Sequence record: SRR31156797_4892
DNA: 41,302 nt
Direction: 5' to 3' (one strand)
Shown: in pieces, positions 1,922-34,568 of the stretch
How positions within the stretch are numbered: position 1 is the stretch's first letter
How the letters are laid out: every line of letters begins with the position of its first letter
Translations under genes and position numbers: made by a program
Notes under the pieces: model-generated
Told to the model about the DNA's origin: nothing
Seen by the model: only the letters and a program-made list of their open reading frames with translations
Databases searched by the model: none

Positions 1922-1943
1922 AATGCCTCCCGGAAGTTTTAGA

Positions 1944-10011: not shown

Positions 10012-11874
10012 TCAGGTTGTCAGAAATCGCGAATGCTCATCCATGGATATCGTCACGGTTGCCGTATCCTCCAGGCCCACGTAACTCGTCATTTCAATCC
10101 GATACAAGGACGTCCCACCTTCTTCAGAAAAAAATTCAAAGCCCATGTCTTCGATAACACGCATGGCCGGGATGTTCTTTCCAGTATTCCTATAAACGAG
10201 CCAAAGGGTGTTTTTTCCCTGTTTGCTGTAGATTTGCATCATATTTTTGAAAAACATCTGTTCAACGCGTTTGCCCAAAACTCGACATGAGATCGCCAGT
10301 TCTTTCACAGTGACTTCGCTATCCCCCTTCTCAATGATACAGAACCCAACTGTGCCATAGTCCCCGAAATCATCTTTGCACGAAACAAGAAGGCAATCAA
10401 GCTCAGGGGAATGAACCAGCTTTGTGAGGTCCTCTCTCCTGTATCGGTTACCTGTAAAATTCAGCTGGTTGGTTCTCTGTATAAGTTCGTGAAGCCGCTC
10501 CAGATCTTCTTCGCGCGGGTATCGTGCCTCAATCGTCATATGACAGCTTAGAAGAAAGTCCTCGTAACTACCTGAAAACGAATCATGAACATGTCGCCGA
10601 TTTTCTTCTGCTTTGTAAAAATATCGTCTTTTTGAGGAGTCGGAGGATGTTGATCCGCTAAAACGCGGGTTATTTGCAATTGACGCCATATCTTGCGAGT
10701 TAATTGTTGTTACTTCTGGAAGTTGAGTTTTGACCTCTTTCAGCTCAAACTCGGAATCATCAATGAAAGCAATCGTATCCATTCCGATGTTAAGTTTTTG
10801 AACGATCTTTGCGATACTCTCACTTTTTGGGCGCCAGCTGATTTGAGGATATAGAAAGTATTCGTAGATACCAAGCTGTTTCAGCATGGCCATCGCGTCT
10901 TCAAAATTATTTTTTGATGCTATGGCATGGACAATGCCGCGTTTATCAAGAGTCTTCAGTAAATTGGTTACACCCTTATTTAGCTCAACACCTTCCGGAT
11001 GTTCCAAAAGAATACCGTTCCAGATGGTATTGTCCAAGTCCCAGACCAAACACTTTATTTTAGGAAGTGCATTTTCATTTTTCGCTGCTTGTAGCTGAAG
11101 ATGCATCCTTTCCCGAAAGACAACGAAATCAGCAGCTGCAAAGAAAAGGACGGGCTCTTTTTTGCCTTGAAAAGACATATAGGCGCGAATATGGCCTTTG
11201 GGATCCAGATAACCTGATATTTCAGCGAACGGCAACACATATTCATTGACGCCGGGTTTTAAAAGCAATCGCTTTTGAAAAAGAATAGAATCTCGTTTTC
11301 TTGGGAAATTGGTAAATTTGAGCGAAAGATGAACCTGGCTTTCAGACCCATTATACACCTGAAGCAGAAAAGCATCAGGCGTCCTGTTTGGAAGGTTGTG
11401 CATAGCATCCAGCAAAATCGCTCTGAGTGCACCAAACCCCCGGAGAAGCTTCTTCTTGGGTGAAATCGAAGAGAAAATAGAACTGGCTATTTTAAATAGA
11501 TGAGCCGCTGCATAGTTTCCCGCTTCAATAAATCTCAGCGCAGCAAAAGAAATTTGGGACAAATTTATTATTGCATCCAGGGTAGCCCACTCTTTGGCAA
11601 CCAGCAGGGCTGAGTACGGGCGAATGCTTGAAAAGCAAGGGGTTTTCTTAATACCAAATTTGAGTGTTCTACAGTGAAGATCAAAGCGGGATTCATACAG
11701 GTCGCAGGTATTATAACAGGCGGGATAAGAACATTCGGAGCAGTGTTCAGTCCAGAGGACAAATGAAGCCGCACGAATTCTTCTTGTTTTGAAATTTTCC
11801 AAAGGGCCCGGTACAATTTTTGAGGCTGGGGACCTCTGATACTGCACTTTGTCATATTGTTCGAATTCCCACAT
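10012..11874 (-). CDS. FkbH-like HAD-IIIC protein with an N-terminal Cys-cluster domain
   Basis: 'WDLDNTIWNG', 'ASKN', 'AFIDDSEFE', 'RTNQLN', 'ISCRVLGKRVE'. N-terminal 'HCSECSYPACYNTCD...HC'. Start moved from 11943 to ATG 11874 (AAGGGG RBS). Confidence 0.85.
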   Translation of the reverse strand: MWEFEQYDKVQYQRSPASKIVPGPLENFKTRRIRAASFVLWTEHCSECSYPACYNTCDLYESRFDLHCRTLKFGIKKTPCFSSIRPYSALLVAKEWATLDAIINLSQISFAALRFIEAGNYAAAHLFKIASSIFSSISPKKKLLRGFGALRAILLDAMHNLPNRTPDAFLLQVYNGSESQVHLSLKFTNFPRKRDSILFQKRLLLKPGVNEYVLPFAEISGYLDPKGHIRAYMSFQGKKEPVLFFAAADFVVFRERMHLQLQAAKNENALPKIKCLVWDLDNTIWNGILLEHPEGVELNKGVTNLLKTLDKRGIVHAIASKNNFEDAMAMLKQLGIYEYFLYPQISWRPKSESIAKIVQKLNIGMDTIAFIDDSEFELKEVKTQLPEVTTINSQDMASIANNPRFSGSTSSDSSKRRYFYKAEENRRHVHDSFSGSYEDFLLSCHMTIEARYPREEDLERLHELIQRTNQLNFTGNRYRREDLTKLVHSPELDCLLVSCKDDFGDYGTVGFCIIEKGDSEVTVKELAISCRVLGKRVEQMFFKNMMQIYSKQGKNTLWLVYRNTGKNIPAMRVIEDMGFEFFSEEGGTSLYRIEMTSYVGLEDTATVTISMDEHSRFLTT

Positions 11875-12086
11875 TTTAAAACCCCTTACTTCGTTATCCG
11901 TTTGTCCTTTTGATGCCATTGCACAGTTAGTGATAAGCATCACTCACAATGTCATGGCTGCAATTTAAAAAACAAGTGCAAGTAAGCAGCATGATTTCCG
12001 CTAATTTAACCCACAAAATCTTTAAGTTACATTAGGGAAAAGACACAAGGGAAGCTAACCACAAGAATTGCAAAATATATAAACTG

Positions 12087-13283
12087 TTATGGGAACAGAC
12101 CCTTTTCCTCTATGACACCGACATAATGTGACATATATTTTTCAGCGCAATCCTGCCACGAATAATTATCCACAGTCTCTCGGATTGCTATGCGATTCCA
12201 AGAGGTCATTAGACAAAAAAGCAACTGGTCGCACAAACTGACCGGATCACCAGCTTTCGCGATTCTTCCATTTCGTTCACTTATGATTTCAGGAATTCCG
12301 CCGACATCGGAAGCAACTACCGGGATGCCACAAGCTAAGGCTTCAATGACAACGTTGGGATATCCCTCCCTTAAACTTGGCAAACAGAAGACGTCTGTTG
12401 CATTCATCCAATATGGAATGTGCTCATAAGGTTCTTCTCCCAAAAAAAATACAGTCTCAGCAACCCCTAGTGAATTTGCTTGAAAAAAAAGGTTCTTTTT
12501 TAACGGCCCATGGCCAATAATATAAAGAAGTGGTTGAATTGTCGTTCTATCTCTTATAATTTTCAAAGCATCAATCAAAAAATTTATACCTTTCACTTCG
12601 TCCAAACTGCAAACGGTCAAAAAGACAGGCTTTCCATCGGGTATACCCAATCCTGTCCTTACTTTTTTCTTTTCCATGATCCGGAAAAGACCTAAATCCA
12701 CCCCGTTTGGGATCACCGTGACTTTTTCATTTGGGATATCCATCTCAGCAATCATTTTTTTCAGAGCGCTACTTTTGGTGGTAATTTCATCTGCTTGCCT
12801 TAGTACGCTGGATATTTGAAGTTTGCGCAACATCATGGTTGAATAAAGATTTATATCACACCCCAGAGCTGTAAGCACAACTGGTTTCTTAAGTATTTTC
12901 CCAACCCACGTTGCCGCAACACCATCAGGAAAAATCCACTGAGCATTGATCAGATCAAAATGTTGCCGCCTCTCAAGTCTTTTAATTAGTCGAAAAAGAG
13001 CGGGAAACATAAATATACCATGCATAAAACCCAAAATTTTTGGGATTACAAGGTATCTCGGGTGATAGACTTGTATCTCTTCTATTTTTTCTTTCACAGG
13101 AACAAGGGCGTGAGGATACTTTGAGAGGCATTTCTTTTTTAAAAAGGGGGGAACCCATGGTAAAGGTGCTACGACCTCAACATCACATTTTTTCTGTAAT
13201 GCCTTTACAATTTGATAGGTGAATATGCCTCTGGTTTTTTCAGCGTGGTTGGGAAAAGCGTTTGTAATAATCAGTACTTTCAT
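12087..13283 (-). CDS. Glycosyltransferase family 4
   Basis: 'IPNGVD' and 'EGYPNVVIEALACGIPVVASDVGG' (EX7E motif). ATGA overlap with the upstream radical SAM gene. Confidence 0.93.
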   Translation of the reverse strand: MKVLIITNAFPNHAEKTRGIFTYQIVKALQKKCDVEVVAPLPWVPPFLKKKCLSKYPHALVPVKEKIEEIQVYHPRYLVIPKILGFMHGIFMFPALFRLIKRLERRQHFDLINAQWIFPDGVAATWVGKILKKPVVLTALGCDINLYSTMMLRKLQISSVLRQADEITTKSSALKKMIAEMDIPNEKVTVIPNGVDLGLFRIMEKKKVRTGLGIPDGKPVFLTVCSLDEVKGINFLIDALKIIRDRTTIQPLLYIIGHGPLKKNLFFQANSLGVAETVFFLGEEPYEHIPYWMNATDVFCLPSLREGYPNVVIEALACGIPVVASDVGGIPEIISERNGRIAKAGDPVSLCDQLLFCLMTSWNRIAIRETVDNYSWQDCAEKYMSHYVGVIEEKGLFP

Positions 13284-14419
13284 ATCTCCTGTTCATCCAA
13301 AACAGATACAACCATTTCAGGTTCAAAAGTCAGGCCGGTGGTAAGGTTACAGCCGTGGATGCAACAGCACCTGCTAATGAGTTTGCGCATTGTCGCGGCA
13401 TCACGGGACTTCCACAATCTCGCAAAATCATAGCCAAATTCACGAATATTTGAAAAGGGCTTTGATAATTCACAGAATGACACATGGCCATCCGAATACA
13501 AAACCGATTCCATTCTTGCTGCATAGCATGGAATATCGCATTTGTGCTTTTCCAGCATCTGGATGGACAATTCCCATATTTTCTGTTGACGGGCGGGCCA
13601 GAAATGAAACTTGCTGCTGTTACTCATCTCCTTTAACAAGGAATATGCACCTTTGATCTCGGCCAAGGAAAGGAACGGGTTGCTTTCATCCTTAGGGTCA
13701 AAACCGCTACATGCATTGGCAGGTAAGTCAAAAACCCCGAATTCCCCTCCTCTGACAATATTAAAGCGCAGGGGAATCTTTAGTGGCAAAAGAGACTCGA
13801 CGAACTCATTTAGCTCGGACAGATTACGTTTTTGAACGGTCAAGGCTGTTTTCAGTTGAAAACCCGGATAATTCGTCCCAATCTTTTTCAATTCCTTTAT
13901 TGTTAATATGGCTTTTTTAAAAGAGCCCTTTACACCCCTTATTGCATCATGGGTTCCTTCCAAGCCATCCAAAGAGACCTGAACACTCAGGCTGTCCAAA
14001 AAACCGCTCTCAAGGATTTCAAGAACAGTTTCAACCGTACGTTCGACAAGGGTGCCATTCGTAGTTATTCCAATTTCTCGTGTTCCACAGCCCCTATTAA
14101 AAATTCTGGCGATCTCGGCCAGATTATCCCTTAGGAATGGCTCTCCGCCGGTCAAAGAAAGCCAAACGGGATGTTTGAACGAGGATGCTACTTTTTCAAT
14201 CTCCCCTATGGATAGTTCATTCTCTCCACTGTTCAATTCCTGCCAGTAAAAACAATGGCTACACCGTAAGTTACATCGGGAGGTAATAAAAAAAACCAAG
14301 GCCACCGGCGTTTCCAGATCCTGAATCCTTTTTTTCTTGCGATTACAATAGGCTTTAGCCAGCGGAAGTTTAAGAAAATGAGGAAGGATCGAGAAAATTT
14401 GCTTCTTCCTATCAATCAT
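13280..14419 (-). CDS. Radical SAM enzyme with a C-terminal SPASM/twitch-like Cys domain
   Basis: 'CNLRCSHC', 'LTGGEPFLR', 'TNG', 'VSLDG...HD.IRG', and C-terminal 'PCYA...DGHVSFCE...CCCIHGC'. ATG 14419 (AAGGGG RBS) preferred over 14473. Confidence 0.88.
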   Translation of the reverse strand: MIDRKKQIFSILPHFLKLPLAKAYCNRKKKRIQDLETPVALVFFITSRCNLRCSHCFYWQELNSGENELSIGEIEKVASSFKHPVWLSLTGGEPFLRDNLAEIARIFNRGCGTREIGITTNGTLVERTVETVLEILESGFLDSLSVQVSLDGLEGTHDAIRGVKGSFKKAILTIKELKKIGTNYPGFQLKTALTVQKRNLSELNEFVESLLPLKIPLRFNIVRGGEFGVFDLPANACSGFDPKDESNPFLSLAEIKGAYSLLKEMSNSSKFHFWPARQQKIWELSIQMLEKHKCDIPCYAARMESVLYSDGHVSFCELSKPFSNIREFGYDFARLWKSRDAATMRKLISRCCCIHGCNLTTGLTFEPEMVVSVLDEQEI

Positions 14420-14576
14420 TCCATAAACCCCTTTGGCCATGCACCCTTTTGGAGGTGGCACGATGCCTTCCATGGAGGATTTTCACGAAATGTGAAATAA
14501 TGGAATTCTCCATCATCCTTTCCTTTGAGCAAGTGGTAATATATTTGCCCCGATGTTTAAAAATAAGGCAATCCAT
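14412..14576 (-). CDS. Possible 54-aa small protein (below the ORF-track cutoff): MDCLIFKHRGKYITTCSKERMMENSIISHFVKILHGRHRATSKRVHGQRGLWND
   Basis: AGGAG lies 6 nt upstream of ATG 14576. The TGA stop overlaps the radical SAM start (ATGATTGA). No recognisable domain. Confidence 0.3.
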   Translation of the reverse strand: MDCLIFKHRGKYITTCSKERMMENSIISHFVKILHGRHRATSKRVHGQRGLWND

Positions 14577-15853: not shown

Positions 15854-17266
15854 TTAGACTCCCTTGATATATCGGCCAAAAAGACTCAGGTACAGACGGT
15901 ATGCTGAACTCATCAGGAAATGGCCTGTTCTCGGCAGCTTTATATCCGATCTTGTAAGGAGATATTCTAAGGAAGAGGCGTAAATAGAACCATTCAGAAC
16001 TTTCAAAAGACTCTTTTTGCCACTCGTTAACCACACTCTATTATTTCTCCATTTTAAAAAATCGCCCCATTCTTCAAGTGATTCGATTTTCTTCAGCCCA
16101 AAGCGAGTTGTACATTCCTTATACAAAATTGAGCCTGGAAACGCCGTGTAAAGCTGAATATGAAAAATAGCTTTTGGGCACAGTTTACGTACTTTAGCCA
16201 CCATCATTAAAGTCGCGAATATATCGGCAGTTGTCTCAAATGGAAAACCGACAATAAAGCAAGCTTCTGGAACAATGTCATATTCATGGCAAATCTGCGC
16301 ACATTTCAAGATGTCTTCCACCTTTATACGTTTGTTGATCCTTTCAAGTATACGCTGCGAACCAGATTCAAAACCGAAAGTAAGATAGTGGCAACCGCTT
16401 CTTTTCATCATCTTAAGAGTAGATGAGGGTAATCGCCAAAAATTATTTGCCCGCGCCGATGCAATCCAATTAATATGGAGTTTTCGGTCGATCAGCCCTT
16501 GACAAAATTCATCCACCCTTGATCCCTTAGAAACAAAGAACGGCTCATAAAGATTAACTGAATGAATTCCGTACTTCTTGACAGCCTCCTCTATGTTATC
16601 AAGGATGTAGGTGGGGCTAAATACTCTGAAGAACTCGGCTTTATCAATTTTATGCGAACAAAATGTGCAAGAATACGGACACCCGCGGCCTGTTTGGACT
16701 GAAAGGACTTTTTCCTTACGCTCAATATTGTATTTTTCCAGATCAAAAAGTCCCCAGGGAATCATTGGGAGACTATTGAGATCCCGAATAACATTTCTCC
16801 TGTGGGTAGATATTATTCTATTATCCTCTTTAAACGAAATCCCCTTGACATTCTTCAGGGAACTGTTTTCGGCTAGAGCCTTTGCAATTTCAACCGCGGT
16901 AAAATCTCCTTCACCATGAACAACAATGTCGACTCTATTATCATTAAGAGTTTGAACAGGAAGAGCACTTGCGTGTCGTCCGCCCCAAACGATAGGGGTA
17001 TCCGGAGAACGTTTTCTTATATAATCGCACATATCCAGGCCGAACTGTATTTGGCTCCCTGTCATGGCGGAAACACCAACGTATATGGTGTCTGAAAGGT
17101 TTTTCGAAATGGTTTCCCGGTAGTTTTCCTCTGTTGCCTGATCGATAATAATCGGTTTAAATCCAGCTTCATATAGCGTTGCCGCGAGCATTAGCGGCGC
17201 AAGAGGAATACCCCCGTATTCACGATCAAAAACCCTTGGGTGCAACAGAAGCACCTTCTTTCGCAT
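15854..17266 (-). CDS. Cobalamin-binding (class B) radical SAM enzyme, probable methyltransferase
   Basis: N-terminal B12-binding Rossmann domain ('VGVSAMTG', 'VWGGRHAS', 'VHGEGD'), 'GRGCPYSCTFC', 'GFESGSQRIL', 'FIVGFPFET'. ATG 17266 has a GGAGG RBS. Confidence 0.9.
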   Translation of the reverse strand: MRKKVLLLHPRVFDREYGGIPLAPLMLAATLYEAGFKPIIIDQATEENYRETISKNLSDTIYVGVSAMTGSQIQFGLDMCDYIRKRSPDTPIVWGGRHASALPVQTLNDNRVDIVVHGEGDFTAVEIAKALAENSSLKNVKGISFKEDNRIISTHRRNVIRDLNSLPMIPWGLFDLEKYNIERKEKVLSVQTGRGCPYSCTFCSHKIDKAEFFRVFSPTYILDNIEEAVKKYGIHSVNLYEPFFVSKGSRVDEFCQGLIDRKLHINWIASARANNFWRLPSSTLKMMKRSGCHYLTFGFESGSQRILERINKRIKVEDILKCAQICHEYDIVPEACFIVGFPFETTADIFATLMMVAKVRKLCPKAIFHIQLYTAFPGSILYKECTTRFGLKKIESLEEWGDFLKWRNNRVWLTSGKKSLLKVLNGSIYASSLEYLLTRSDIKLPRTGHFLMSSAYRLYLSLFGRYIKGV

Positions 17267-17392
17267 CTTGTCCTCCAGTACTATATTCGAATTACCGATT
17301 CGAAGCACTCTTCAGTTCAGCTCAATTGGAAGCCAAAAAAAGCTTTGGAAATTACTCCGGCCGCAAGAATCACCTCAGAACGGCTCCATTTA

Positions 17393-17809
17393 TCAAATTT
17401 CCTCATTTTCCAGCAATTCAAAAAGACCAAAGTCTTTATGGAATACCCATGCAATATTACGACCATCGAAGGCAGCGGCGGGAACAGGGTTGGTGACTTT
17501 GTGAAACCCATGGTTCCGGCATTCCACAAGTGCCCGAGCAATATCGGGCACTCCGTAACATACATGGACAAGTTTCACCCGGTTTTTCAGGTTTCTCCAG
17601 ACCGGAGACGACTTGCCAAGAGGTTCAATGAGCTCAACCTTTAGACCGTTTAGCTTAACAAAAGCGACTTTGACCCGTTGGACAGGGTCCTCAATGCCGA
17701 AGCAGTCGGTGCAGATTTCTGCCACAGATCTCACAACAAGGCCTAAATGATGAAACTGAGCGTCCTTTCCAAAAAAGTCAAATTCTATGGTTGCCATACT
17801 TTTCAGCAT
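17393..17809 (-). CDS. VOC-superfamily protein (methylmalonyl-CoA epimerase/glyoxalase-like)
   Basis: 'FHHLGLVV', 'DPVQRVKVAFV', 'VELIEP', 'HVCYGVPDI', 'LFELLE' give the His/Glu metal ligands of the VOC fold. ATG 17809 has an AGGAG RBS. Confidence 0.85.
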   Translation of the reverse strand: MLKSMATIEFDFFGKDAQFHHLGLVVRSVAEICTDCFGIEDPVQRVKVAFVKLNGLKVELIEPLGKSSPVWRNLKNRVKLVHVCYGVPDIARALVECRNHGFHKVTNPVPAAAFDGRNIAWVFHKDFGLFELLENEEI

Positions 17810-17822
17810 TCGGCAAAGGCTC

Positions 17823-18884
17823 CTATGGGTGATGAACAGTACATTGGAAAGGCAGGGTATCCTCGTCTTGATCAAGAAATGGCCTTCTTAATCCGTTATC
17901 CGTCCAATCAAAATTGATCAGCCAATTGGATGTGTCAGGGGCTATCTCAATTATCTTCTTTAAACTCCCCATAGCAAAGAGACGTTCCGAGCTTTCAGCA
18001 CGAAACCCAAATGATTCGAAAATTTCTTGCATCCTTCGATGAGATGATGTCATGAAAATTTCTCTCGATTTTTTATCCCTATAAGAAACTTGAGCTAAAC
18101 TTAGCAATATACCGTATGCCAAGATCTCGGGATCTTCCCCATCGCATTGGGCTAACAAAATGCGTTCCGGTGATTCATTTAGAACAACATATCCTGATGT
18201 GGAGTCTCCTATGAGTATCCTAAAAACCCGATAACGTACAAATGGTAACTTTGTATTGTACCTCCAGTTTAGGTAGTCTACTGTCGGTGCAAGCCGGAAG
18301 GCAAATGGTGAAGTCTTAGGGACAAGCCCCTTGCTGAAAACCTCCTCCTCCCGGACACTGAGTTTATCCACATTGGATTTCCTAATTCTCGTTGAATACC
18401 TGGACAACTTCTTCCGCCTTACGCGGCGAAGGACCTTTTTCGCAATGACCCGCCATATAGCTTCGCCCGGGTAAGGCAAATAGCTTTTATTCAACAAATA
18501 GATTTTGACCCCGTTAAAATATGTCCATCTTTGTTTCTGAATGATTCGATGGGCTTCTTTCGTGCCTCCAAAATTAAGGCAAAATGGGGCGGTTTTTATC
18601 CAATGCAAAAAAAGAAGCCCACCGATTCCGGGATTGAACGAATGAAAATTGTTGGCAAGTCCGATTATCATCTCCTTGGATTGCCACTCGAAACGCATAG
18701 TCTCAACCCCAATTGTTCCCAAGACCTTTTGGCCTTCCATCATGAGGTATAATCTTGACCAAGCACTAGTGGCATAGTAATAATTAACGAAAGATCGATG
18801 AGTCAAGCTAAGCTTAGAGTTCTTTTCCTTTACCGTCCTTTTCAAGGACTCGAATAACTCGGGTGTGTATGTGACGATTTTCAT
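17823..18884 (-). CDS. GNAT-like (tandem-fold) putative acyltransferase
   Basis: 'VLGTIG', degenerate motif A 'NPGIGGLL', 'YLNWRY', and position directly after the ACP gene. Start at 18884 or 18917. Confidence 0.5.
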   Translation of the reverse strand: MKIVTYTPELFESLKRTVKEKNSKLSLTHRSFVNYYYATSAWSRLYLMMEGQKVLGTIGVETMRFEWQSKEMIIGLANNFHSFNPGIGGLLFLHWIKTAPFCLNFGGTKEAHRIIQKQRWTYFNGVKIYLLNKSYLPYPGEAIWRVIAKKVLRRVRRKKLSRYSTRIRKSNVDKLSVREEEVFSKGLVPKTSPFAFRLAPTVDYLNWRYNTKLPFVRYRVFRILIGDSTSGYVVLNESPERILLAQCDGEDPEILAYGILLSLAQVSYRDKKSREIFMTSSHRRMQEIFESFGFRAESSERLFAMGSLKKIIEIAPDTSNWLINFDWTDNGLRRPFLDQDEDTLPFQCTVHHP

Positions 18885-18939
18885 TATTTTTTGGCGGGAT
18901 GAGTTTTTTCGGATCACGATGCCACATTATTGAATTTCA

Positions 18940-19182
18940 TTATTTGAGAGGCATCTTGTTTTGAATGAATTCAAGAATCGCTTCAAAGGATGTAAATCTT
19001 CCAAGATCTTCCGGCTCGATTTCAAATTTGAATTCCTCCTCTACGACAGTAAACAGGGTGACTGTGGCCAGAGAATCCCACTCAGGGATGGAATTTACAT
19101 CTGCCTTTCTTATTTCATTTTCCCCCAATTCGGAAAAAACCGCTGAAAAAGACCGCACCAATCGGTCTGCTATTTTTGACAT
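18940..19182 (-). CDS. Acyl carrier protein
   Basis: 80 aa, acidic, 'WDSL' phosphopantetheine Ser, 'VEEEFKFEI'. Starts 1 nt after the FkbH stop. Confidence 0.92.
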   Translation of the reverse strand: MSKIADRLVRSFSAVFSELGENEIRKADVNSIPEWDSLATVTLFTVVEEEFKFEIEPEDLGRFTSFEAILEFIQNKMPLK

Positions 19183-19183
19183 G

Positions 19184-20914
19184 CTATACCTCTTTAACCT
19201 TGTGAAATAGTTCAGGGCATTTATTCATGAAAACATCCTTGGGTATTGCAAAAGGCTTGTTTTGTTTTTCTCCAAGTACACTCTCAAAAAAATCCTGTAA
19301 TGGGCCATTCCTCGGCGTGGCTTTAAAATCAAATTGGATTTTTTTCGCTTCGAATCTATGGAACAAATATTCTAAACATTTAAACTCGATTCGGCGCCCG
19401 AAGGCGCGGCAGCTCATTACCCATGTATCAACCGAGATACTCTTTTGCTTTCGTCTCCCGATCAACACAGCTATTTTTCCCAGTAGCCCATATTTATCCT
19501 TGTATGAAACGGTAACCAAAAAGGTTTCGCCCATTTTTAAGGTTTTTTGCCAAATGCCTTCCGTATATCGCCTTCCGTTCAAATTGAATTGATTTGTTTT
19601 GTTTATCAATTGGAAAGCCCGAGAATCAGAAGAGACCTTCTCAAAACTGAATTCCAATTCAGCTTCTGCTCGTTCAAGCAGCTTCGATAGAGAAGCATCG
19701 TGATCGAAAGCCGTTTCCTCGAAGGGAGTTTCCTGTCGTAGGCTCTTGAGCCGGATAGCATCTTCCTCAAAGATCCTTTCCTGGGCGAAGAGGTCACGCA
19801 GCTCCTTTAGCAATTCGTAGATCCCATCGTTTCTTCCTTTGGGGAAGAGACGACATGTAACTTCCGGAAAAACGGAGTTCACCTCTTCCAATTCCATTGG
19901 GCTGTCATCAACAAAAACGATACTCTCAGCTCCGATGTTCCAGGCTTTGAGAATTCTCCCGATGGAGATGGATTTTTGACCCCAATGAACCTCCATTGGA
20001 AACAAATCTTCCCGGGGCAGGAGGATATCTTCACGTTGCAGAGCTTTCTCCACCAAGACCGGATCGTTTTTGCTGGCGACCCCGATCAATATTCCCGATT
20101 CTGAAAGGGCATGCAATACTTGCTGGTATACCGCGTGCATATGACTATTGTTGTCAATATCCCAAGAAATTCCGTCGATCCCAACCTCCCCCAAAATTCC
20201 CCGCCAAAGTGTATCGTCCAGGTCCGTGACCAAGCCTTTTTTGCTAGGTGGAGATTTGATGAGAAAGGCCAAAAGCTCCGCAATTACGGAAGCATGCGAT
20301 AGCGTATAAGGAAACCCGGCCAAGAGCTCCGATTTTGCATCGAAACGATTTGTCATCGGCGAAAGCCTGTTCAGCATTTGAAGATTGAGGACTTTCACCC
20401 CGTTAATATTGCCAACATTGACGCCAAATGAAATGAGGCTTTGCCATAGCAGAAGCTCGTTTGGGCCACACTGTCGGCGAGGATGATGGAAAACGGGTGG
20501 TAACTCGATACTGGGTAAGCATACCACCAAAGGGACTGATTGTGCGGCATTTTCGAGCAGCGACAGAAAACGGATTGCCTGGGCCGAGACCGTTTCTTCT
20601 ATATCCGACAAAACATTTGGAGTCCAGCTCCCCGCACTTCGAATTCCCAACCTGGGATCAAAATCCGACCATTCAAAGACAATGGCGCCTGCGTCTGCCG
20701 GGGTATGTGCCAGAAGCGCCAAATTCCCCGCCAAATCTCCATAAACTCCGGTCTTAATCTCGATTCCATGGTCTACGCAGACTTGCCTCAAATATGCACC
20801 CAAAAAAGTCTTGAGATGCAAAGGCATGAATCCACATCCGAGAAAAACCGAAAAGAGTTTTGAGTCGGGTTTTGGAGGTTTTTGCATTATCGTCAAGGCT
20901 TCAATCAGCTTCAT
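19184..20914 (-). CDS. FkbH-like HAD-IIIC glyceryl-ACP-loading protein
   Basis: 'TDLDDTLWRG', 'VASKN', 'VFVDDSPMELEE', 'KTNQFNL', 'WVMSCRAFGRRIE'. Confidence 0.9.
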   Translation of the reverse strand: MKLIEALTIMQKPPKPDSKLFSVFLGCGFMPLHLKTFLGAYLRQVCVDHGIEIKTGVYGDLAGNLALLAHTPADAGAIVFEWSDFDPRLGIRSAGSWTPNVLSDIEETVSAQAIRFLSLLENAAQSVPLVVCLPSIELPPVFHHPRRQCGPNELLLWQSLISFGVNVGNINGVKVLNLQMLNRLSPMTNRFDAKSELLAGFPYTLSHASVIAELLAFLIKSPPSKKGLVTDLDDTLWRGILGEVGIDGISWDIDNNSHMHAVYQQVLHALSESGILIGVASKNDPVLVEKALQREDILLPREDLFPMEVHWGQKSISIGRILKAWNIGAESIVFVDDSPMELEEVNSVFPEVTCRLFPKGRNDGIYELLKELRDLFAQERIFEEDAIRLKSLRQETPFEETAFDHDASLSKLLERAEAELEFSFEKVSSDSRAFQLINKTNQFNLNGRRYTEGIWQKTLKMGETFLVTVSYKDKYGLLGKIAVLIGRRKQKSISVDTWVMSCRAFGRRIEFKCLEYLFHRFEAKKIQFDFKATPRNGPLQDFFESVLGEKQNKPFAIPKDVFMNKCPELFHKVKEV

Positions 20915-21077: not shown

Positions 21078-22943
21078 CTACGAATAAGTCTCAAGCCAAT
21101 GATATAAAACCAAAAGTGAGAAAATTCTTATGCTATAGTCTTCTTTCTTTTTACAGTGCCTCTCAAACATGGATTCTAAATACTTTTTTTTAAACCAGCC
21201 GGTATCGATCAATTTCCTGCTAAGAATGATATCCTTTGCAGGCTCCATCAGATCCCCTGCAAACCACCGTTTTGTAGGCGCGCTAAAGCCCATTTTTTTT
21301 CGATATATAATCTCTTTTGGGAGGTACTTTTCCATCAATTTCTTTAAAATGAATTTACCTTCCCCGTTACTTATTTTGTATTTTGCTGGTAATGAGGAGG
21401 CAAATTCAACAATATTATGATCAAGAAAAGGAACTCTCAACTCAACAGAAGTTGCCATCGTCATTTTATCCGCCCTTAAAAGAAGATCTTCCAGCAGCCA
21501 GGTCTTTGAATCAACATAGAGGAGTTGCGACAAAGGAGGTTTTTCCTCGACATCCTTGAACCATCCGCAGAATGTTTCGCCTAAATAATCGTTTTCTTGG
21601 GTGTAATCCAACAACTCTTGAGAATAAAAATGCCGCTTAATACGTTCTGTTAAATAGCCGGAAGTGCTCCTATACCTATCCACAACAGCACTCGACAACC
21701 AGTCGGCATACTTCTTAAGCTTATCTCCCGGCAAACAGATATCAGGGATCCATTCAAAAAATTTAAATAAGCCCCTTGTTTTGTTCATGGTTAGCATTTT
21801 TGCATAAAGGCCGTATCCACCAAACACTTCATCACTGCCTTCCCCTGACAACAATACTGTTGCATAACGTTTTGCTTCTTTGGCAATCTGGTAAAGAGGA
21901 ATAGCAACGCTTTCAGCCAGAGGTTCTTCGGTAATCCTAACCAGCTCAGGTATTGAATCTATAAAATCCAGTGGTTTTAGTATGAATTCATGATGTTCCG
22001 TACCGAAGAGATCTGCCACCTTTCTGGCATAGCCGAGTTCATTGGCTTCATCAGCGCCCTTATAGCCTAAGGTAAATGTTTTGATCCGTTGATCCGTTGC
22101 TCTAGACATTAGAGCAGTGATTGCGCTTGAATCTAGCCCACCACTTAAGAAAACGCCGAGGGGAACCTCACTCATCAAGCGCCTCTCCACGGAATCTGTT
22201 AGCAATTGGTCAAGTTTTTCTTGTGCTCCGGAAAATGAAATAGGATTGAATTCGATTTTGTCAAAATTCCAGTAACATTCGATCTCTGTTTTACCATTTT
22301 CATCGATAGTCATGAAGTGTCCGGGAAGCAGTTTATAGATACCTGTAAACATAGTCATCGGTCCCGGCACGTAGCCCAACGTTAGGAATGAATCCAGTGC
22401 AGAATATTTCAAACTACTTTCAACCAGGCCTGACGCAAGGATTGCCTTGATTTCTGATGCAAAAATAACGACTTCATTGTCTTTGTAGTAATATAGAGGC
22501 TTGATTCCCATCCGGTCACGCACCAGAAAAATACGTTTCAGCCTGCCATCCCAGATGGCAAAAGAGAACATTCCCCTGAATTCCTTTACACATTGTACGC
22601 CCCACTTCTTGTAGGCATTCAAAACAACCTCAGTGTCGGAATTTGTTGTGAATTGAAAACCTATTCCCAGAAGCTCTCTTTTTAGATCCAGATAATTGTA
22701 GATTTCGCCATTATAGACGATCGTAGCAGGATAGCCACCGACATCATTGCTCATCGGTTGTTGACCGCCTTTGATATCAATAATGCTTAACCTTCGATGC
22801 CCTAGAGCGCATTGTCCATTAACGTAAATTCCGGAATCGTTCGGTCCCCTGAGTTTCATGGTTTGAGCCATGTTCAGAATCAGATCTGATGACACAACTT
22901 TATCACTACCTTTAGAATAAACAATTCCACAAATTCCACACAT
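21078..22943 (-). CDS. asnB: Asparagine synthase (glutamine-hydrolysing)-family amidotransferase
   Basis: N-terminal nucleophile 'MCGICG', 'LGHRRLSIID', 'NGEIYN', 'RDRMGIKPLYY', 'FLSGGLDSS', 'LSGEGSDE', 'RVPFLD'. Confidence 0.95.
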   Translation of the reverse strand: MCGICGIVYSKGSDKVVSSDLILNMAQTMKLRGPNDSGIYVNGQCALGHRRLSIIDIKGGQQPMSNDVGGYPATIVYNGEIYNYLDLKRELLGIGFQFTTNSDTEVVLNAYKKWGVQCVKEFRGMFSFAIWDGRLKRIFLVRDRMGIKPLYYYKDNEVVIFASEIKAILASGLVESSLKYSALDSFLTLGYVPGPMTMFTGIYKLLPGHFMTIDENGKTEIECYWNFDKIEFNPISFSGAQEKLDQLLTDSVERRLMSEVPLGVFLSGGLDSSAITALMSRATDQRIKTFTLGYKGADEANELGYARKVADLFGTEHHEFILKPLDFIDSIPELVRITEEPLAESVAIPLYQIAKEAKRYATVLLSGEGSDEVFGGYGLYAKMLTMNKTRGLFKFFEWIPDICLPGDKLKKYADWLSSAVVDRYRSTSGYLTERIKRHFYSQELLDYTQENDYLGETFCGWFKDVEEKPPLSQLLYVDSKTWLLEDLLLRADKMTMATSVELRVPFLDHNIVEFASSLPAKYKISNGEGKFILKKLMEKYLPKEIIYRKKMGFSAPTKRWFAGDLMEPAKDIILSRKLIDTGWFKKKYLESMFERHCKKKEDYSIRIFSLLVLYHWLETYS

Positions 22944-23004: not shown

Positions 23005-23811
23005 TCACTTTTTTATTATATAGTATTTTAAGTAATTATTATTTTCTATCTCTATACATTCTTCTTGTTTGTCCGAAAGAAATTCATCGACGGCTTTATT
23101 ACATCCGGGCCAAGGAGGATCATTGTACTCATCAAATAGAATAATTCCTCCCTTAACCAATCTGGGGTAAAAGAAATCTAAACATACTTTATAGGAATAA
23201 TACAAATCACAATCCAAATGCACGAAAGAAAATTGCCGGTTCCCAATTTGTGGTAATGAATTTTCAAAATAACCCTTCAATAGAATTATTTCCGGCCAAA
23301 CTTCAAAGACTTTAGCTTGTTTAGAAACATACTCAAGAGATGTTTGGCTGAACCCTCCCTGCATTTTATCTGAATCCTCTGCTCCTCCGAGTTTGATGTC
23401 AATATGAACCGTTTCATCAAAACCCTCAAATGAATCCAAGCCAAAAATGTGCTTATTAATCTTGTTTTCTTTAATGTATAAAGCAATAGGAATCAATGTT
23501 GATCCCTGAAAGACGCCACACTCAGCAATATCGCCTTCTAAGTGTTTTGTTTTCCACAATAACTTAAAAATTATATTGATATTTGCACTACCGCTGGGTT
23601 GAGGGTATGGTCTGGCGGTGACTCCTTTAGGGATTGAAATATTGGCGAATTTACCAAAACATGAAGGCCATTCAAAAATTGATTTATTTTTATATAAGAA
23701 ATAGTAAATTTTAGTAACAAATTTTCTTAGAAATTTGGAGATAAACGGCCGGCAAGGAAGAAACCTTAACAATGTTCTCATATAATTGATGCCTCTATAT
23801 GGCTCTACCAT
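23005..23811 (-). CDS. TylF/MycF/NovP-family SAM-dependent O-methyltransferase
   Basis: 'GDIAECGVFQG', 'GLDSFEGF', 'KGYFENSL', 'FVHLDCDLY', 'GGIILFDEY...WPGCNKAVDEF'. Confidence 0.9.
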   Translation of the reverse strand: MVEPYRGINYMRTLLRFLPCRPFISKFLRKFVTKIYYFLYKNKSIFEWPSCFGKFANISIPKGVTARPYPQPSGSANINIIFKLLWKTKHLEGDIAECGVFQGSTLIPIALYIKENKINKHIFGLDSFEGFDETVHIDIKLGGAEDSDKMQGGFSQTSLEYVSKQAKVFEVWPEIILLKGYFENSLPQIGNRQFSFVHLDCDLYYSYKVCLDFFYPRLVKGGIILFDEYNDPPWPGCNKAVDEFLSDKQEECIEIENNNYLKYYIIKK

Positions 23812-23821
23812 TTCAGGAGCT

Positions 23822-24844
23822 TCAAACCCGAAATTTTACAAAAAGCTGTGGAAAAAGAAGGTTTGCTTGAAACAAAGTGTAATCCACATCTGTCTCCACA
23901 TGAATTCGCGGTATCGTAAACAATTGATCCTCATTGAAATTTTTAACGTTATGATCATAACAAAGGCCAAATTGATATCCGCAATCCTTGGCACAATTTA
24001 CGACCCTTTCATCATAGCTTCCAGCGGGATAGGCGATACTTCTGATTTTTTCTCCTAATTTTTCTTCAATAACCCTCTTTGATTCTACAAGTTCATACAT
24101 AATTTCATCAATTGTCAAATTGGATAAAAACGGATGAGTTACGGTATGCGATCCGATTTCTAGTCCACCTTCACTCATTTCTTTAATTTGGCTCCAGTTT
24201 AACGGCTTGGCTAATTCAAAGTGATCGGGCGATATATGTATTTTTGACTGTTGTTCCAGCTGGTTATACAGGCGAAGGCGGTCTTTGTTAGAAACACTGC
24301 GAAACAAACTCATTACTGAAGCTCTTGTCTTACTTCTATTTTCAGAATTTAAATTAAATATATGCTTGCCATTATCAAGGATAATACGATCATTGGAAAT
24401 ATGCTTTATTATATATGTAAGCTTATCAAACCAAAATGGTTCTTTATTATCTATAAAGGATGTGGATAAAAAAACAGTTGCCGTTAATTCATGTTTTTTT
24501 AAAATTTTCCAAGCAATTTCATAATTATCTGCATAGCCATCATCGAAAGTAATAATAAGCGAATTATTTGGAAGATTCTTATCTGAAAGAAGAATATTCG
24601 ATAATATTTTAAAATTAATAACATTAAATCTCTTCTTCACAAAGCGAAGTTGTTTTTCAAATTCTTCTGGAGTGGCACTGATTGTTCCTTCTTCGAAAGG
24701 ATAGCCCCTTTTAATCAATGGCGATACACGGTGATAAGCAAGGATATAAAACAAGTTAGGCCTTATTATGCTAAACATAGGCAATGATATAGCGTTCAGC
24801 CAGCGAAACATTAAATTAGCTAATAAACTTTTCTTTCCCCTCAT
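23822..24844 (-). CDS. Polysaccharide deacetylase (NodB/CE4, EPS-locus type with helical insertion)
   Basis: 'ILAYHRV', 'ITFDDGY', 'GSHTVTHP', 'IAYPAG'. Confidence 0.9.
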   Translation of the reverse strand: MRGKKSLLANLMFRWLNAISLPMFSIIRPNLFYILAYHRVSPLIKRGYPFEEGTISATPEEFEKQLRFVKKRFNVINFKILSNILLSDKNLPNNSLIITFDDGYADNYEIAWKILKKHELTATVFLSTSFIDNKEPFWFDKLTYIIKHISNDRIILDNGKHIFNLNSENRSKTRASVMSLFRSVSNKDRLRLYNQLEQQSKIHISPDHFELAKPLNWSQIKEMSEGGLEIGSHTVTHPFLSNLTIDEIMYELVESKRVIEEKLGEKIRSIAYPAGSYDERVVNCAKDCGYQFGLCYDHNVKNFNEDQLFTIPRIHVETDVDYTLFQANLLFPQLFVKFRV

Positions 24845-29238: not shown

Positions 29239-30714
29239 TCAAACCAAACCTCGGTTAAGCAATTTTCGAAACCGTAAAACGGAAACCCTTCTTAGTTTCT
29301 TATCTGCAAAAAACAAAAAAAGTGCATACGAAAAAATTCCAACCCCAATTTGTGTAAACAGATGGCTACCAGGATATGAGATGCTAAAGGTTTTCAGACC
29401 AACATACATCAGAAAAGCGCATATTCCGTAAAGAACAATTGGATACCATGGAATCTTAATTTTGAAATACTTTGACGATTTTATGGAACCGACAACAAGA
29501 AAAAAAAGGTAACAAAAAAGAGTTGAAATTGCTGCGCCAAACAAACCTGCGGTCGGGATCAACACCAAATTTATCAAAAAATTCAGGGTAGCTGTTTGCA
29601 TCATCAACAAGGCTACCCTTTTAGTTTGCTTGTAAAACCAAAATCCCAATGTCAGAGGAGTGCATAAGCCGCTGATAATGGCTACGGTAGCTAAATACGG
29701 CAAGACGTAGAAGGCTTGGGCATATTTCTCGGATGCCAGCATAATAACCGCCTCTTGCCCGACGCTGCATAGTCCCACAACCAATGGGAAGGCGACCATA
29801 CAGTAAAGTCGAATCACCCGCTGAATTTCGAGATGTGTTTCTTCGTGAGGAAGCTGTTCCCAGTTTTTCATGATAAGGGGGATAAAGCCAAGCTGGAATC
29901 CGGACAAAAGGACCCCGGTAACATAGAAACAGAGATTACGCGCGACGCTGTAAATTGCGACATCAGACTTTGTCAAGAAATACCCAATTAGATACCGATC
30001 TGAGCTTGAAAGGAGAACTCCGGCAAGGCCAAACAGCACCAATGGAAATCCATAGGTAATGGTTTTTTTCAGAATCGGGAACGAAAATTTATTAATGGAA
30101 AAGCCGATCTGTTTAACAAATAGTAGCAAAAGTACCGTTAAAACTGTCAATTCCCCGACAACCAGTCCAAAAAAATATCCAAATAAACCCAAATGCCAAA
30201 TCGTCAAGGCAAGGATGATTAGCCCTAGTGGCACGTATTTTGCGGAAATGGAAAAAAAGGAATAGGTCACCGGCTGTTCTCTAACACGGTAAATGGAGCA
30301 GATAATATTGAACATTACCCGAATAATAATGAGTAAGGATGCTAAGAGAAAAGCTCTCCAAAGTTCAAAAGAAACGTCGTGAAAGATCGAAAATAGTTTT
30401 ATTGCAGCTATTGCAAACACAGTAGCAACAATTCCGGAGGTGAATGAGCTAATGAGCAAGGTTGAATAAAAGCTTTGAGCTTCCTTACACCCTTGGTATT
30501 CAGGATGAAATCTAAGTGTGCTATGGTTTAGCCCTAGGGTTGCAAAGGGCGCGACTATGCTAATCGAGACAGAAACCAGAGTCATTGCCCCATATTGGTC
30601 TCGGGTTAACAAGCGGGCGATTATTGGAAAAGATATGAGCCCGCCCGCCATGATGATGATTTCCCCCAAAACATAAATTGAGGTATGCTCTAATAACCGT
30701 TTTATTGTGGACAT
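29239..30714 (-). CDS. wzx: Polysaccharide flippase (Wzx/PST family)
   Basis: Many TM helices, 'FPIIARLL..QYG', 'SDRYLIGYF...VAIYS', 'NLVLIP..GLFGAAIST'. Confidence 0.88.
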   Translation of the reverse strand: MSTIKRLLEHTSIYVLGEIIIMAGGLISFPIIARLLTRDQYGAMTLVSVSISIVAPFATLGLNHSTLRFHPEYQGCKEAQSFYSTLLISSFTSGIVATVFAIAAIKLFSIFHDVSFELWRAFLLASLLIIIRVMFNIICSIYRVREQPVTYSFFSISAKYVPLGLIILALTIWHLGLFGYFFGLVVGELTVLTVLLLLFVKQIGFSINKFSFPILKKTITYGFPLVLFGLAGVLLSSSDRYLIGYFLTKSDVAIYSVARNLCFYVTGVLLSGFQLGFIPLIMKNWEQLPHEETHLEIQRVIRLYCMVAFPLVVGLCSVGQEAVIMLASEKYAQAFYVLPYLATVAIISGLCTPLTLGFWFYKQTKRVALLMMQTATLNFLINLVLIPTAGLFGAAISTLFCYLFFLVVGSIKSSKYFKIKIPWYPIVLYGICAFLMYVGLKTFSISYPGSHLFTQIGVGIFSYALFLFFADKKLRRVSVLRFRKLLNRGLV

Positions 30715-32062: not shown

Positions 32063-33331
32063 TTACCACACCTGTCTGAGAAACAAATACCAAGTGATAA
32101 GCAGGGCAATAGTAAGTCCAAATGCATTCTTGTTCCAGAGATGCGCAGTCATGCTTGGGAAAAGAACACCTTCAGCACTTACTTCGTCAGTATCCTTGAG
32201 GGCAAATCTGCCGAGTACGCCAATTAAGGCGATGCACATTAAAAAAACCAGATCGTACGTTCTGGTTGAAAAAACTGATGCCCCAATATAAGACATAAGA
32301 AAACTGCCCAAACCTGCATAATAGTGGCGCCACCTCATATTTTCCGGTTGCGTGCTAACTTTGACGATGGTGTATCCTGCCATAAAGATCATGCCCACAA
32401 AGGCATATAGCCCCACCAAGCCGAGCTCGGCTCCAGCACGAACAAAGGAATTGTGTGAATCCCGCACATGATGTTCTTTAAACTGATCCTTCCCCACCCC
32501 TTTTACGGGATGATTTTTCAACATTTGCCAGCCATCAGCCCAGGCCTCAATTCTTCCCATGGCCGAATCATCTTCTCGATATCCGGCTGCTTGTGTCGTT
32601 GCTACAGCCAAAACACCTAATAGTGCAAAAACAACCATTTGCTTCTTTCTTTTAGGATTTCTTAGCCAAAGATAGGCCCATGAAAACAGGCAAATGGCGA
32701 GTGCAACTTGACCACCTCGAGATCTGGTGAGATATATACAGTAAAGGGAAATGATCAAAAGGGCGATGCCTCCAAGTCGCCCGGTAAAACCTTTTGCCTG
32801 GAATAATAGGCCTAGCCCAAAAGGTATTACCAACACTGCAGAATATGCCAAGTCATTGGGGTTATCAAAATTTCCGATGCCCTTAATTTGCCAAGCCATT
32901 TTGGAAGGTGACCATCCCATGACGGCACCCGTAATGTTATAGCCATGATACTGCAAAACCCCCATAAGAGCCACTATCGCCATCAAGATGACCATTGTCC
33001 ATACCGCCCAGCGTAACTTGCTTTCATCCTCAACAACTATTACGATGAAGTAATAGATTAGCGCTGTTTTGAGTGTCTGAATAGCAGTATCTATTATATT
33101 GGATATCCAAAACTCGGTTAGTGTCGAAAGAACGATGGCAACAAAAAACAATCCGACGAATTTGTCCTGTGGGCTGCGAAACAGCTTTTTTTCAGCAGGG
33201 CTAAATAACAGGGCTGATAATAGGATTGCCATCAGATATAGGGCGAGCCGAGCGCCTTTGAGGCCGGGAACAAAATCCTGAGGGCGTATGATTTGGAGGA
33301 AAATGAATAGGAGCAGGCCGAAAAATAGCAT
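32063..33331 (-). CDS. O-antigen ligase/Wzy polymerase family protein
   Basis: Polytopic; 'NPNDLA', 'TRSRGG', 'SAMGR...W', 'HPVKGVG', 'SHNSF..AGAELG..G' (Wzy_C). Confidence 0.85.
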   Translation of the reverse strand: MLFFGLLLFIFLQIIRPQDFVPGLKGARLALYLMAILLSALLFSPAEKKLFRSPQDKFVGLFFVAIVLSTLTEFWISNIIDTAIQTLKTALIYYFIVIVVEDESKLRWAVWTMVILMAIVALMGVLQYHGYNITGAVMGWSPSKMAWQIKGIGNFDNPNDLAYSAVLVIPFGLGLLFQAKGFTGRLGGIALLIISLYCIYLTRSRGGQVALAICLFSWAYLWLRNPKRKKQMVVFALLGVLAVATTQAAGYREDDSAMGRIEAWADGWQMLKNHPVKGVGKDQFKEHHVRDSHNSFVRAGAELGLVGLYAFVGMIFMAGYTIVKVSTQPENMRWRHYYAGLGSFLMSYIGASVFSTRTYDLVFLMCIALIGVLGRFALKDTDEVSAEGVLFPSMTAHLWNKNAFGLTIALLITWYLFLRQVW

Positions 33332-34525: not shown

Positions 34526-34568
34526 TTGTTCAAGAGATTTTTTTTAGAAGTTGGCATGGGACGGTGTC

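Follow-up and report, generated by a model that had tools for sequence, protein, structure and literature searches.

A 41,302-nt stretch of DNA (record SRR31156797_4892, hereafter the window) carries at positions 15854..20914, on the minus strand, a run of five genes, four of which form a unit: they encode an FkbH-type loader (FkbH1), a dedicated acyl carrier protein (ACP), a tandem-GNAT protein of 355 residues (X355) and a VOC protein. On balance, we favor the view that these four genes are a carrier-protein acylation cassette that tailors the exopolysaccharide of the Wzx/Wzy-type locus around them. Comparison with related loci gives good support to the core of this view, namely that an ACP-dependent acyl unit would feed a transferase of GNAT fold within a glycan locus; the probable route recurs in many soil bacteria. 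As the preliminary description of this DNA had it, five contiguous open reading frames (ORFs) lie here on the same strand:

19184..20914, minus strand: FkbH1, a three-domain FkbH-type HAD-IIIC loader of 576 aa (TIGR01686)
18940..19182, minus strand: the dedicated ACP, 80 aa, recognized by a W-D-S-L motif and its spacing
17823..18890, minus strand: X355, a tandem-GNAT protein of 355 aa (ORF 17823-18917, with the homolog-consistent ATG at 18890)
17393..17806, minus strand: a single-module VOC protein, 137 aa from the ATG at 17806 (Glyoxalase_4, 51.1 bits against a cut-off of 27)
15854..17266, minus strand: a class B (B12-binding) radical S-adenosylmethionine (SAM) enzyme (ORF 15854-17308, with the likely start at 17266 behind GGAGGA)

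Within the unit the genes are separated by 1 nt (FkbH1 to ACP), 49 nt (ACP to X355) and 16 nt (X355 to VOC), and the unit is flanked by gaps of 163 nt upstream of FkbH1 and 126 nt between the VOC and radical SAM genes. At the first junction the FkbH1 stop codon TAG is followed by one base and then by the ATG of the ACP, the spacing given in the preliminary description. A promoter and terminator scan of the intergenic gaps returned nothing above shuffled expectation.

FkbH1 scores 213.9 bits with TIGR01686 (cut-off 146.65), which places it in the FkbH domain family, and 54.4 bits with the HAD-SF-IIIC model (cut-off 35.75). In an alignment of 10 sequences the HAD motif D231-x-D233-x-T235 and a second acidic motif, D336-D337, are invariant or nearly so, and S501-C502-R503 in the C-terminal domain is invariant. 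In OzmB the conserved cysteine in the C-terminal domain of this family is the acyl-enzyme site. The structure model of FkbH1 (predicted local distance difference test, pLDDT, 78; predicted template modeling score, pTM, 0.45) comprises a predicted GDSL/SGNH-esterase-like N-domain (approximately residues 1-220; template modeling score 0.63-0.64, normalized to the target), a predicted MDP-1-like HAD phosphatase in the middle (0.67) and a predicted GNAT-like C-domain. Its top overall fold match is 3slr (BF1531), an uncharacterized Bacteroides protein. The SGNH-like N-domain is strongly conserved, with a consensus F-L-A-C-G-F where such esterases usually carry their nucleophile motif. In the adjoining ACP, W35-D36-S37-L38 forms the signature motif; D36 and S37 are invariant across 34 homologs, and Ser37 is the presumed phosphopantetheine site.

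X355 had no match in Pfam or among PDB sequences up to an E value of 10, none in NCBIfam and none in a plasmid collection. Its 146 homologs are of similar length (the best is 58% identical), have no precomputed Pfam domain in any case and, where their sources name them, are called 'hypothetical protein'. An AlphaFold2 model built from a 44-sequence alignment (pLDDT 91.6, pTM 0.90) resolves into two GNAT halves, and tandem-GNAT N-acyltransferases match it over residues 1-331 (Foldseek E ~1e-11; VIA-align). VIA-align placed the N-myristoyltransferase (NMT) 2p6e first (Z 17.7, root-mean-square deviation 4.2 over 295 residues), followed by Eis2 (Z 16.6), the tandem GNAT MAB_4324 (Z 16.6), MshD (Z 13.3) and FemA (Z 11.0). 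Thus, the label 'GNAT-like' given to X355 in the preliminary description is right by predicted fold, and its closest fold matches are N-acyltransferases: NMT, Eis, MshD and glucosamine N-acetyltransferases.

One argument of that description is weak. It had taken the motif N-P-G-I-G-G, which forms residues 86-91 in the beta4-alpha3 loop of the N-terminal GNAT half, for a degenerate CoA-binding loop suited to an acyl-ACP donor. Across 44 X355 sequences the loop reads [Q16/R9/E8]-P31-G40-x-G43-G34 (numbers are counts of sequences), with N in first place in the window copy, and the loop glycines G88 and G90 are conserved in 40/44 and 43/44 sequences, respectively. The family consensus [Q/R/E]-P-G-x-G-G is thus close to the usual GNAT loop and says nothing about the donor beyond its type: the loop appears near-canonical across the family and would suit a donor that bears pantetheine phosphate, CoA or holo-carrier protein alike.

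The case for a carrier-protein-borne donor, as the preliminary description had proposed, comes instead from gene neighborhoods. By tblastn we compared the proteins of the window with 129 X355 loci, of which 49 lie on one-genome-per-species contigs and 80 on metagenome contigs. In 59 of them X355 is flanked by 3 kb or more to either side; these were evaluable, with neighbors counted within 5 kb. A full-length FkbH1-type gene (42-51% identity) stands beside X355 in 16 of the 49 genome loci, and 18 of the 80 metagenome loci have an FkbH1-type match, some of them ending at the contig edge. Among the evaluable loci, 22 have an FkbH1-type loader, 20 have an adenylate ligase with an ACP and 17 have neither; none has both. 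Dereplication at 70% identity left 30 informative clusters (16 FkbH-type, eight adenylate-type, six with neither), and an Sfp-type phosphopantetheinyl transferase is present in 14 of the 20 adenylate-type loci. On a quick maximum-likelihood tree of 111 X355 sequences the FkbH label changes 12 times, with at least six changes forced by well-supported branches, and the association with FkbH covers Planctomycetota, Acidobacteriota, Myxococcota and Pseudomonadota. Since X355 keeps company with two unrelated carrier-protein loaders in several phyla, it is best read as a consumer of a charged carrier protein.

The same loci point to an acceptor. A deacetylase of carbohydrate esterase family 4 (CE4) lies within 5 kb of X355 in 12 of the 22 FkbH-type and 15 of the 20 adenylate-type loci, that is, in 27 of 42 loader-linked loci, versus none of the 17 loci without a loader. 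The recurrence of these enzymes fits a putative amino-sugar acceptor, and it supports a role for X355 as a carrier-protein-fed acyltransferase that would re-acylate a de-N-acetylated sugar. The window encodes two CE4 deacetylases, and the deacetylases beside X355 elsewhere are closer to the longer one than to the other, which has 232 aa, in 46 of the 47 loci with a match. The longer enzyme is probably the partner that frees the acceptor amine:

23822..24844, minus strand: CE4 polysaccharide deacetylase, 340 aa (Polysacc_deac_1, 100.8 bits)

No sugar aminotransferase was found in a domain scan of the window ORFs, which leaves a deacetylase as the one evident way to a free amine. X355 could instead O-acylate a sugar hydroxyl, yielding a glycerate ester as in gellan-type polymers, with the deacetylases unrelated to it. 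Enzymes of the GNAT fold are capable of O-acylation, and some exopolysaccharides bear glycerate esters; the link to a carrier protein would be the same, and 10 of the 22 FkbH-type loci have no deacetylase within 5 kb. Against this, the co-occurrence with deacetylases is confined to loader-linked loci, and the closest structural matches of X355 transfer acyl groups to nitrogen. We regard O-acylation as unlikely.

Seen from the loader, the picture is one of modules. At least 581 FkbH1-type stretches were found in one-genome-per-species contigs, and we examined the neighborhoods of the best 80, which are mostly from Acidobacteriota with some from Planctomycetota, Verrucomicrobiota, Nitrospira, Actinomycetota and Dormiibacterota. 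An ACP homolog comes next after the FkbH1-type gene in 59 of the 80. The pair is accompanied by a 597-aa protein without a Pfam match in 29 loci, a hexapeptide acyltransferase in 19, a different tandem GNAT of 333 aa in 18, a VOC protein in 16 (by tblastn; 11 by clustering), a fusion of a MaoC dehydratase with an SDR enzyme in seven, X355 in six and a FemAB-like transferase in four, while 41 loci have none of the four transferases. The 333-aa tandem GNAT showed no relation to X355 (hhalign probability 0.3). Other frequent neighbors are glycosyltransferases, deacetylases, UDP-glucose dehydrogenase and Wza. By these comparisons FkbH1-ACP appears to be a portable module that different polysaccharide loci join to different transferases and editors.

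The commonest arrangement in these loci runs FkbH1, ACP, hexapeptide acyltransferase, 597-aa protein (for example L052:8014-8523 and L090:4143-5936). The MaoC-SDR fusion stands directly after FkbH1-ACP in its seven loci, among them L092 (7965-9170), and directly before X355 in L028 (8794-9990). Some polyketide synthases (PKSs) have DH-KR-FkbH-ACP loading modules, and by analogy with these the fusions would presumably yield lactyl-ACP from glyceryl-ACP. A cultured organism, Paludibaculum fermentans P105, carries on its plasmid pPfer1, in a polysaccharide locus, a full-length FkbH1-type gene (44% identity) annotated 'HAD-IIIC family phosphatase', whose neighbors include a GNAT, glycosyltransferases, a deacetylase, an MBOAT protein and an O-antigen-ligase-family gene; X355 is absent, and no ACP is entered in the gene table of this locus.

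These neighborhoods also bear on the possibility that the acyl group loaded by FkbH1 is not glyceryl, or that FkbH1 is no more than a phosphatase, and that X355 is an ordinary N-acetyltransferase dependent on acyl-CoA. The SGNH-like N-domain of FkbH1 falls outside the curated FkbH domain model, a RefSeq relative is named only as a phosphatase of the HAD-IIIC family and has no ACP beside it in the gene table, and the loop of X355 would suit CoA no less than ACP. Yet neither the catalytic motifs nor the S-C-R cysteine vary, loader and ACP are tightly coupled here, an ACP follows the loader in most related loci, and a switch of X355 between two unrelated carrier-protein loaders would be hard to explain if its donor were CoA. 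We consider this possibility very unlikely.

The VOC protein is an accessory of the module and not part of its core, to judge by its distribution. It lies directly between the ACP and X355 in two loci (L019 and L031), and a VOC gene occurs in three of the 22 evaluable FkbH-type X355 loci and in four of the 80 metagenome X355 loci; together with the 16 of 80 FkbH1 loci given above, these counts speak against its being a fixed part of the line, as the preliminary description had implied. Its nearest relative is 59% identical, similar to the 58% of X355. The protein is a VOC member by model and not a methylmalonyl-CoA epimerase, as it scores 40.2 with TIGR03081, below the cut-off of 114.95. Its PDB sequence matches are 2qh0 and 3hdp, structural-genomics entries named 'glyoxalase I' (60-62 bits), and the human methylmalonyl-CoA epimerase 3rmu (33 bits).

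The radical SAM enzyme stands apart. It matches PF04055 (60 bits against 29.5) and PF02310 (49.1 against 32.1) and has the motif CPYSCTFC (CxxxCxxC); none of the best 25 of 27 matched NCBIfam models reached its cut-off. Class B radical SAM enzymes methylate unactivated carbons, and the preliminary description had all five genes in one assembly line, with the enzyme methylating the ACP-bound glyceryl group before transfer, with or without isomerization by the VOC protein. In favor of such a line, the gene comes immediately downstream in the same orientation, the 126-nt gap has no terminator-like site, and one FkbH-type X355 locus (L038) has a distant B12 radical SAM gene adjoining (26% identity). 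Homologs, however, occur in only one of the 49 genome X355 loci, one of the 80 FkbH1 loci and none of the 80 metagenome X355 loci (2/209 in all), at 22-26% identity. Its identity to the closest relatives is 84-86%, whereas X355 and VOC reach 58-59% with theirs, so the enzyme appears to have a recent history different from that of X355 and VOC.

A single-sequence scan for relatives of this enzyme found only 28-33% identity, and an alignment-based scan found one ortholog-level locus, L219 (53% identity, on a 9.6-kb contig). There it lies among genes for an ATP-grasp protein, a methyltransferase, a CE4 deacetylase, two GT4 glycosyltransferases and an FkbM methyltransferase, with no FkbH, ACP, X355 or VOC gene on the 9.6 kb. 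The B12 radical SAM enzyme is thus outside the conserved unit as far as sequence comparison goes and is probably a separate glycan-tailoring enzyme; a line of all five genes seems quite unlikely to us. What survives of the earlier proposal is its FkbH-ACP-acyltransferase core. The neighborhood search that the preliminary description had called for found this FkbH-ACP-X355 core conserved in polysaccharide loci of several phyla, with VOC as an accessory only.

The setting of the cassette is as that description had stated. The minus strand of the window is one long polysaccharide gene run of Wzx/Wzy type by Pfam and ORF annotation, which also holds a beta-barrel porin, at least nine glycosyltransferases, the two CE4 deacetylases, several methyltransferases and an AsnB-type amidotransferase. 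A scan of 34 window ORFs (an overlapping 139-aa ORF, 34513-34932, was left out) found no PKS, ketosynthase (KS), nonribosomal peptide synthetase or AMP-binding domain, in keeping with the absence of assembly-line domains noted earlier. The other genes of this run that concern us are:

36371-38824, minus strand: Wza-type exporter
32063-33331, minus strand: Wzy polymerase
29239-30714, minus strand: Wzx flippase
23005..23811, minus strand: TylF-type O-methyltransferase (TylF, 78.6 bits)
21078..22943, minus strand: AsnB-type glutamine amidotransferase, directly upstream of FkbH1 (Asn_synthase, 348.8 bits)
10012..11943, minus strand: FkbH2, a second FkbH-type protein of 643 aa (TIGR01686, 260.9 bits)

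This setting can be weighed against the idea that the cassette just happens to lie in a polysaccharide locus and has another target, such as a lipid, an amino acid or some small molecule for secretion. The nearest X355 relatives without FkbH are of the L134 type (L134:3898-15313; similar in L136 and L149-L158), where a luciferase-like monooxygenase, an adenylate ligase, a 90-aa ACP, a methyltransferase, X355, a CE4 deacetylase of 567 aa, an Sfp-type phosphopantetheinyl transferase, an A-T didomain protein and a P450 follow one another in what looks like a small natural-product pathway. Adenylate-type loci thus resemble natural-product clusters, and one clade of orphan X355 genes lies among unrelated genes. 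In the window and in most FkbH-type loci, by contrast, glycosyltransferases, deacetylases, Wzx/Wzy and export genes adjoin, and the unit is embedded in a single long same-strand operon. A target other than a glycan is therefore highly improbable in our view.

As for the other neighbors, an AsnB-type gene, at most a candidate member of the cassette, recurs near X355 in six of the 22 evaluable FkbH-type loci and near FkbH1 in 13 of 80. An apparent X355-AsnB fusion in L045 was rejected, as X355 has its own stop there and AsnB follows in another frame. TylF homologs adjoin the cassette in three loci (L006, L007 and L163) and occur in four of the 80 FkbH1 loci; the enzyme may O-methylate either the acyl group or the sugar. 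Over the HAD and C-terminal domains FkbH2 shares 27% identity with FkbH1, and it too has the S-C-R motif. Its N-terminal region of ~295 aa is unrelated to that of FkbH1 and has a Cys-rich stretch, C-x2-C-x4-C-x3-C. No carrier-protein gene lies beside it, and FkbH2 may either use the single ACP of the locus as well or work with no ACP at all.

Further features of the window lie outside the cassette. Two initiating sugar transferases (Bac_transf) are encoded on opposite strands, a full-length one at 82-1476 (plus strand) and one of 220 aa at 1944-2606 (minus strand), with a DUF29 gene (1484-2002, minus strand) between them. At the end of the polysaccharide operon, 4588-6990 (minus strand) encodes an 800-aa protein with a right-handed beta-helix and an FGE-sulfatase-type domain. 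A second radical SAM enzyme (13280-14473, minus strand) lies between two glycosyltransferase genes and has weak matches to SPASM-type maturases; a homolog of 32% identity occurs ~8 kb from X355 in L011.

For the cassette we propose a route of four steps. First, FkbH1 would take the glyceryl group of 1,3-bisphosphoglycerate, its HAD domain would remove the 3-phosphate, and D-glyceryl would pass to the phosphopantetheine arm of the ACP; we suggest glyceryl because of FkbH family membership and the adjacent standalone ACP. Second, the VOC protein may invert C2 of the glyceryl thioester, by analogy with methylmalonyl-CoA epimerase. Third, the N-terminal half of X355, which we link to the carrier protein on account of gene neighborhood, would bind the acyl-pantetheine arm, and the enzyme would transfer the acyl group to what is presumed to be a free sugar amine. 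Fourth, this amine would be exposed by the CE4 deacetylase at 23822-24844 through removal of an N-acetyl group. The net effect would be the replacement of N-acetyl by N-glyceroyl, possibly followed by O-methylation by TylF-type enzymes, and the neighboring B12 radical SAM enzyme would most likely act elsewhere on the glycan. We infer the identity of the acyl group (glyceryl), the nitrogen acceptor and the stage of acylation (nucleotide sugar, lipid-linked unit or polymer).

Several observations weigh against this route. The X355 loop motif does not distinguish acyl-CoA from acyl-ACP. The ACP is below the gathering cut-off of PF00550 (17.8 against 20.8 bits) and of the best NCBIfam ACP model (26.1 against 71), and no phosphopantetheinyl transferase is encoded in the window. 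Because of its extra SGNH-like N-domain, FkbH1 may have a substrate different from that of the polyketide enzymes. Pairing of FkbH1 with X355 is modular and not obligate, since only six of the best 80 FkbH1 loci hold X355 and the others hold alternative transferases or none. The 17 of 59 evaluable loci without a loader nearby belong mostly to one Acidobacteriaceae clade, and only three of five orphan genomes have an FkbH-domain gene anywhere. Many X355 loci are near-duplicates from related samples, so that the counts overstate independence; the tree came from a quick search in which the X355 of the window is not firmly placed; and the related loci come from uncultured genomes or metagenomes, which leaves no glycan structure to match.

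The orphan genes themselves (L012, L014, L015, L030, L033, L034, L036, L037, L039, L040 and L046) form one clade of Acidobacteriaceae and Korobacteraceae. The genes around X355 there are unrelated to the cassette, and neither a loader nor a deacetylase occurs within 5 kb.

How does the cassette compare with known systems? A loader-ACP pair of this kind is known from polyketide glycerate pathways, of which the window has no other part, and here it adjoins a member of an unannotated transferase family in a glycan locus. The polyketide cassettes combine FkbH and ACP either with acyl-ACP dehydrogenases and an O-methyltransferase or with a FabH-like condensing enzyme, beside a PKS. The likeness to these cassettes (for example Mad7/Mad8 and Mad14/Mad12) lies in an FkbH domain above cut-off, the HAD motifs, the conserved cysteine and a small ACP immediately downstream. 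The window differs from them in having no PKS, KS/FabH-like protein or acyl-ACP dehydrogenase among the 34 scanned ORFs, in that a tandem GNAT, encoded in a polysaccharide locus, would be the consumer, and in the extra SGNH-like N-domain of ~220 aa in FkbH1. Excerpts of two papers describe glyceryl loading by FkbH-like enzymes with standalone ACPs in methoxymalonyl-ACP and tetronate polyketide pathways (PMC7489565; PMC3679948).

The tandem GNATs NMT, Eis, MshD, MAB_4324 and a clavulanate ORF share the two-GNAT fold and align with X355 residues 1-331 at Z 13.3-17.7, but they are only 4-11% identical to it and all use acyl-CoA. NMT binds its donor in the N-terminal half, where the donor-binding loop of X355 also lies.

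In Nod-factor synthesis NodB is a CE4 de-N-acetylase, NodF an ACP and NodA an acyl-ACP N-acyltransferase. The likeness of the cassette to this system is one of logic only: in the proposed route, as in Nod-factor synthesis, a CE4 enzyme removes N-acetyl, and the amine is re-acylated from a dedicated carrier protein. The X355 tandem GNAT is unrelated to NodA, and where the Nod system uses a fatty acid, the acyl group here would be a glycolysis-derived C3 hydroxy acid. The cassette does not belong to the NodB/NodF/NodA system: the deacetylases of the window are below the NodB cut-off (101.9 against 240 bits for the 232-aa enzyme), and X355 has no family match. The Vibrio cholerae O1 antigen, with its genes for ACP-dependent tetronate N-acylation, follows a similar overall logic.

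Campylobacter jejuni offers a further parallel in its cj1298-cj1303 locus, which, we presume, also holds a FabH-like gene and an acetyltransferase. By the excerpts of the papers cited here, this locus resembles the cassette in having an fkbH-domain gene and a second ACP in a glycan locus, and its strain forms N-acyl sugars of glyceroyl type. In strain NCTC 11168 the flagellin-glycosylation locus contains the fkbH-domain gene cj1302 (excerpt of PMC7099621) and a second ACP, Cj1299 (acpP2; excerpt of PMC6109747), and the strain makes 2,3-di-O-methylglyceroyl nonulosonic acids (excerpts of PMC3068675 and bioRxiv 10.64898/2026.04.20.719630). The difference is that these excerpts do not link cj1302 or Cj1299 to the glyceroyl group, for which Cj1295 is shown to be required, and the likeness is by description only. 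An N-glyceroyl group is also present in Tannerella forsythia, and an excerpt of a 2017 paper called its genetic basis unknown (PMC5378307). Among the matches listed, the FkbH literature, judged by title or abstract, is mostly about polyketides, nonribosomal peptides and other natural products, with a few unrelated papers and some on Campylobacter. No description of FkbH-ACP-dependent glycan acylation was found in the open-access full-text literature; subscription papers could have been missed.

Beyond the window, we tentatively suggest, with rather less confidence than we have in the cassette itself, that X355 represents a widespread unannotated family of carrier-protein-dependent glycan N-acyltransferases and forms the output of a modular 'acyl-swap' of CE4 deacetylases, interchangeable loaders and optional editors. 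If so, the loaders would be FkbH proteins for glycolysis-derived glyceryl and adenylate ligases for other acids, and the editors would be the VOC protein as an epimerase and the MaoC-SDR fusion for lactyl. This would supply the as yet unassigned genes for N-glyceroyl and related sugars, and it would mean that soil bacteria routinely decorate their polysaccharides by polyketide-style carrier chemistry.

N-acyl groups other than acetyl, for example glyceroyl, lactyl and hydroxybutyryl, shape how antigenic a bacterial surface glycan is and how it behaves physically. This locus, like its relatives, suggests a concrete and testable route to N-glyceroyl by way of FkbH, an ACP, a new tandem GNAT and a CE4 deacetylase. 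If this route is correct, it would give a function to hundreds of genes now labeled 'HAD-IIIC family phosphatase' or 'hypothetical protein', extend polyketide-type carrier chemistry to polysaccharide tailoring and provide a toolbox for designer acyl groups on glycans.

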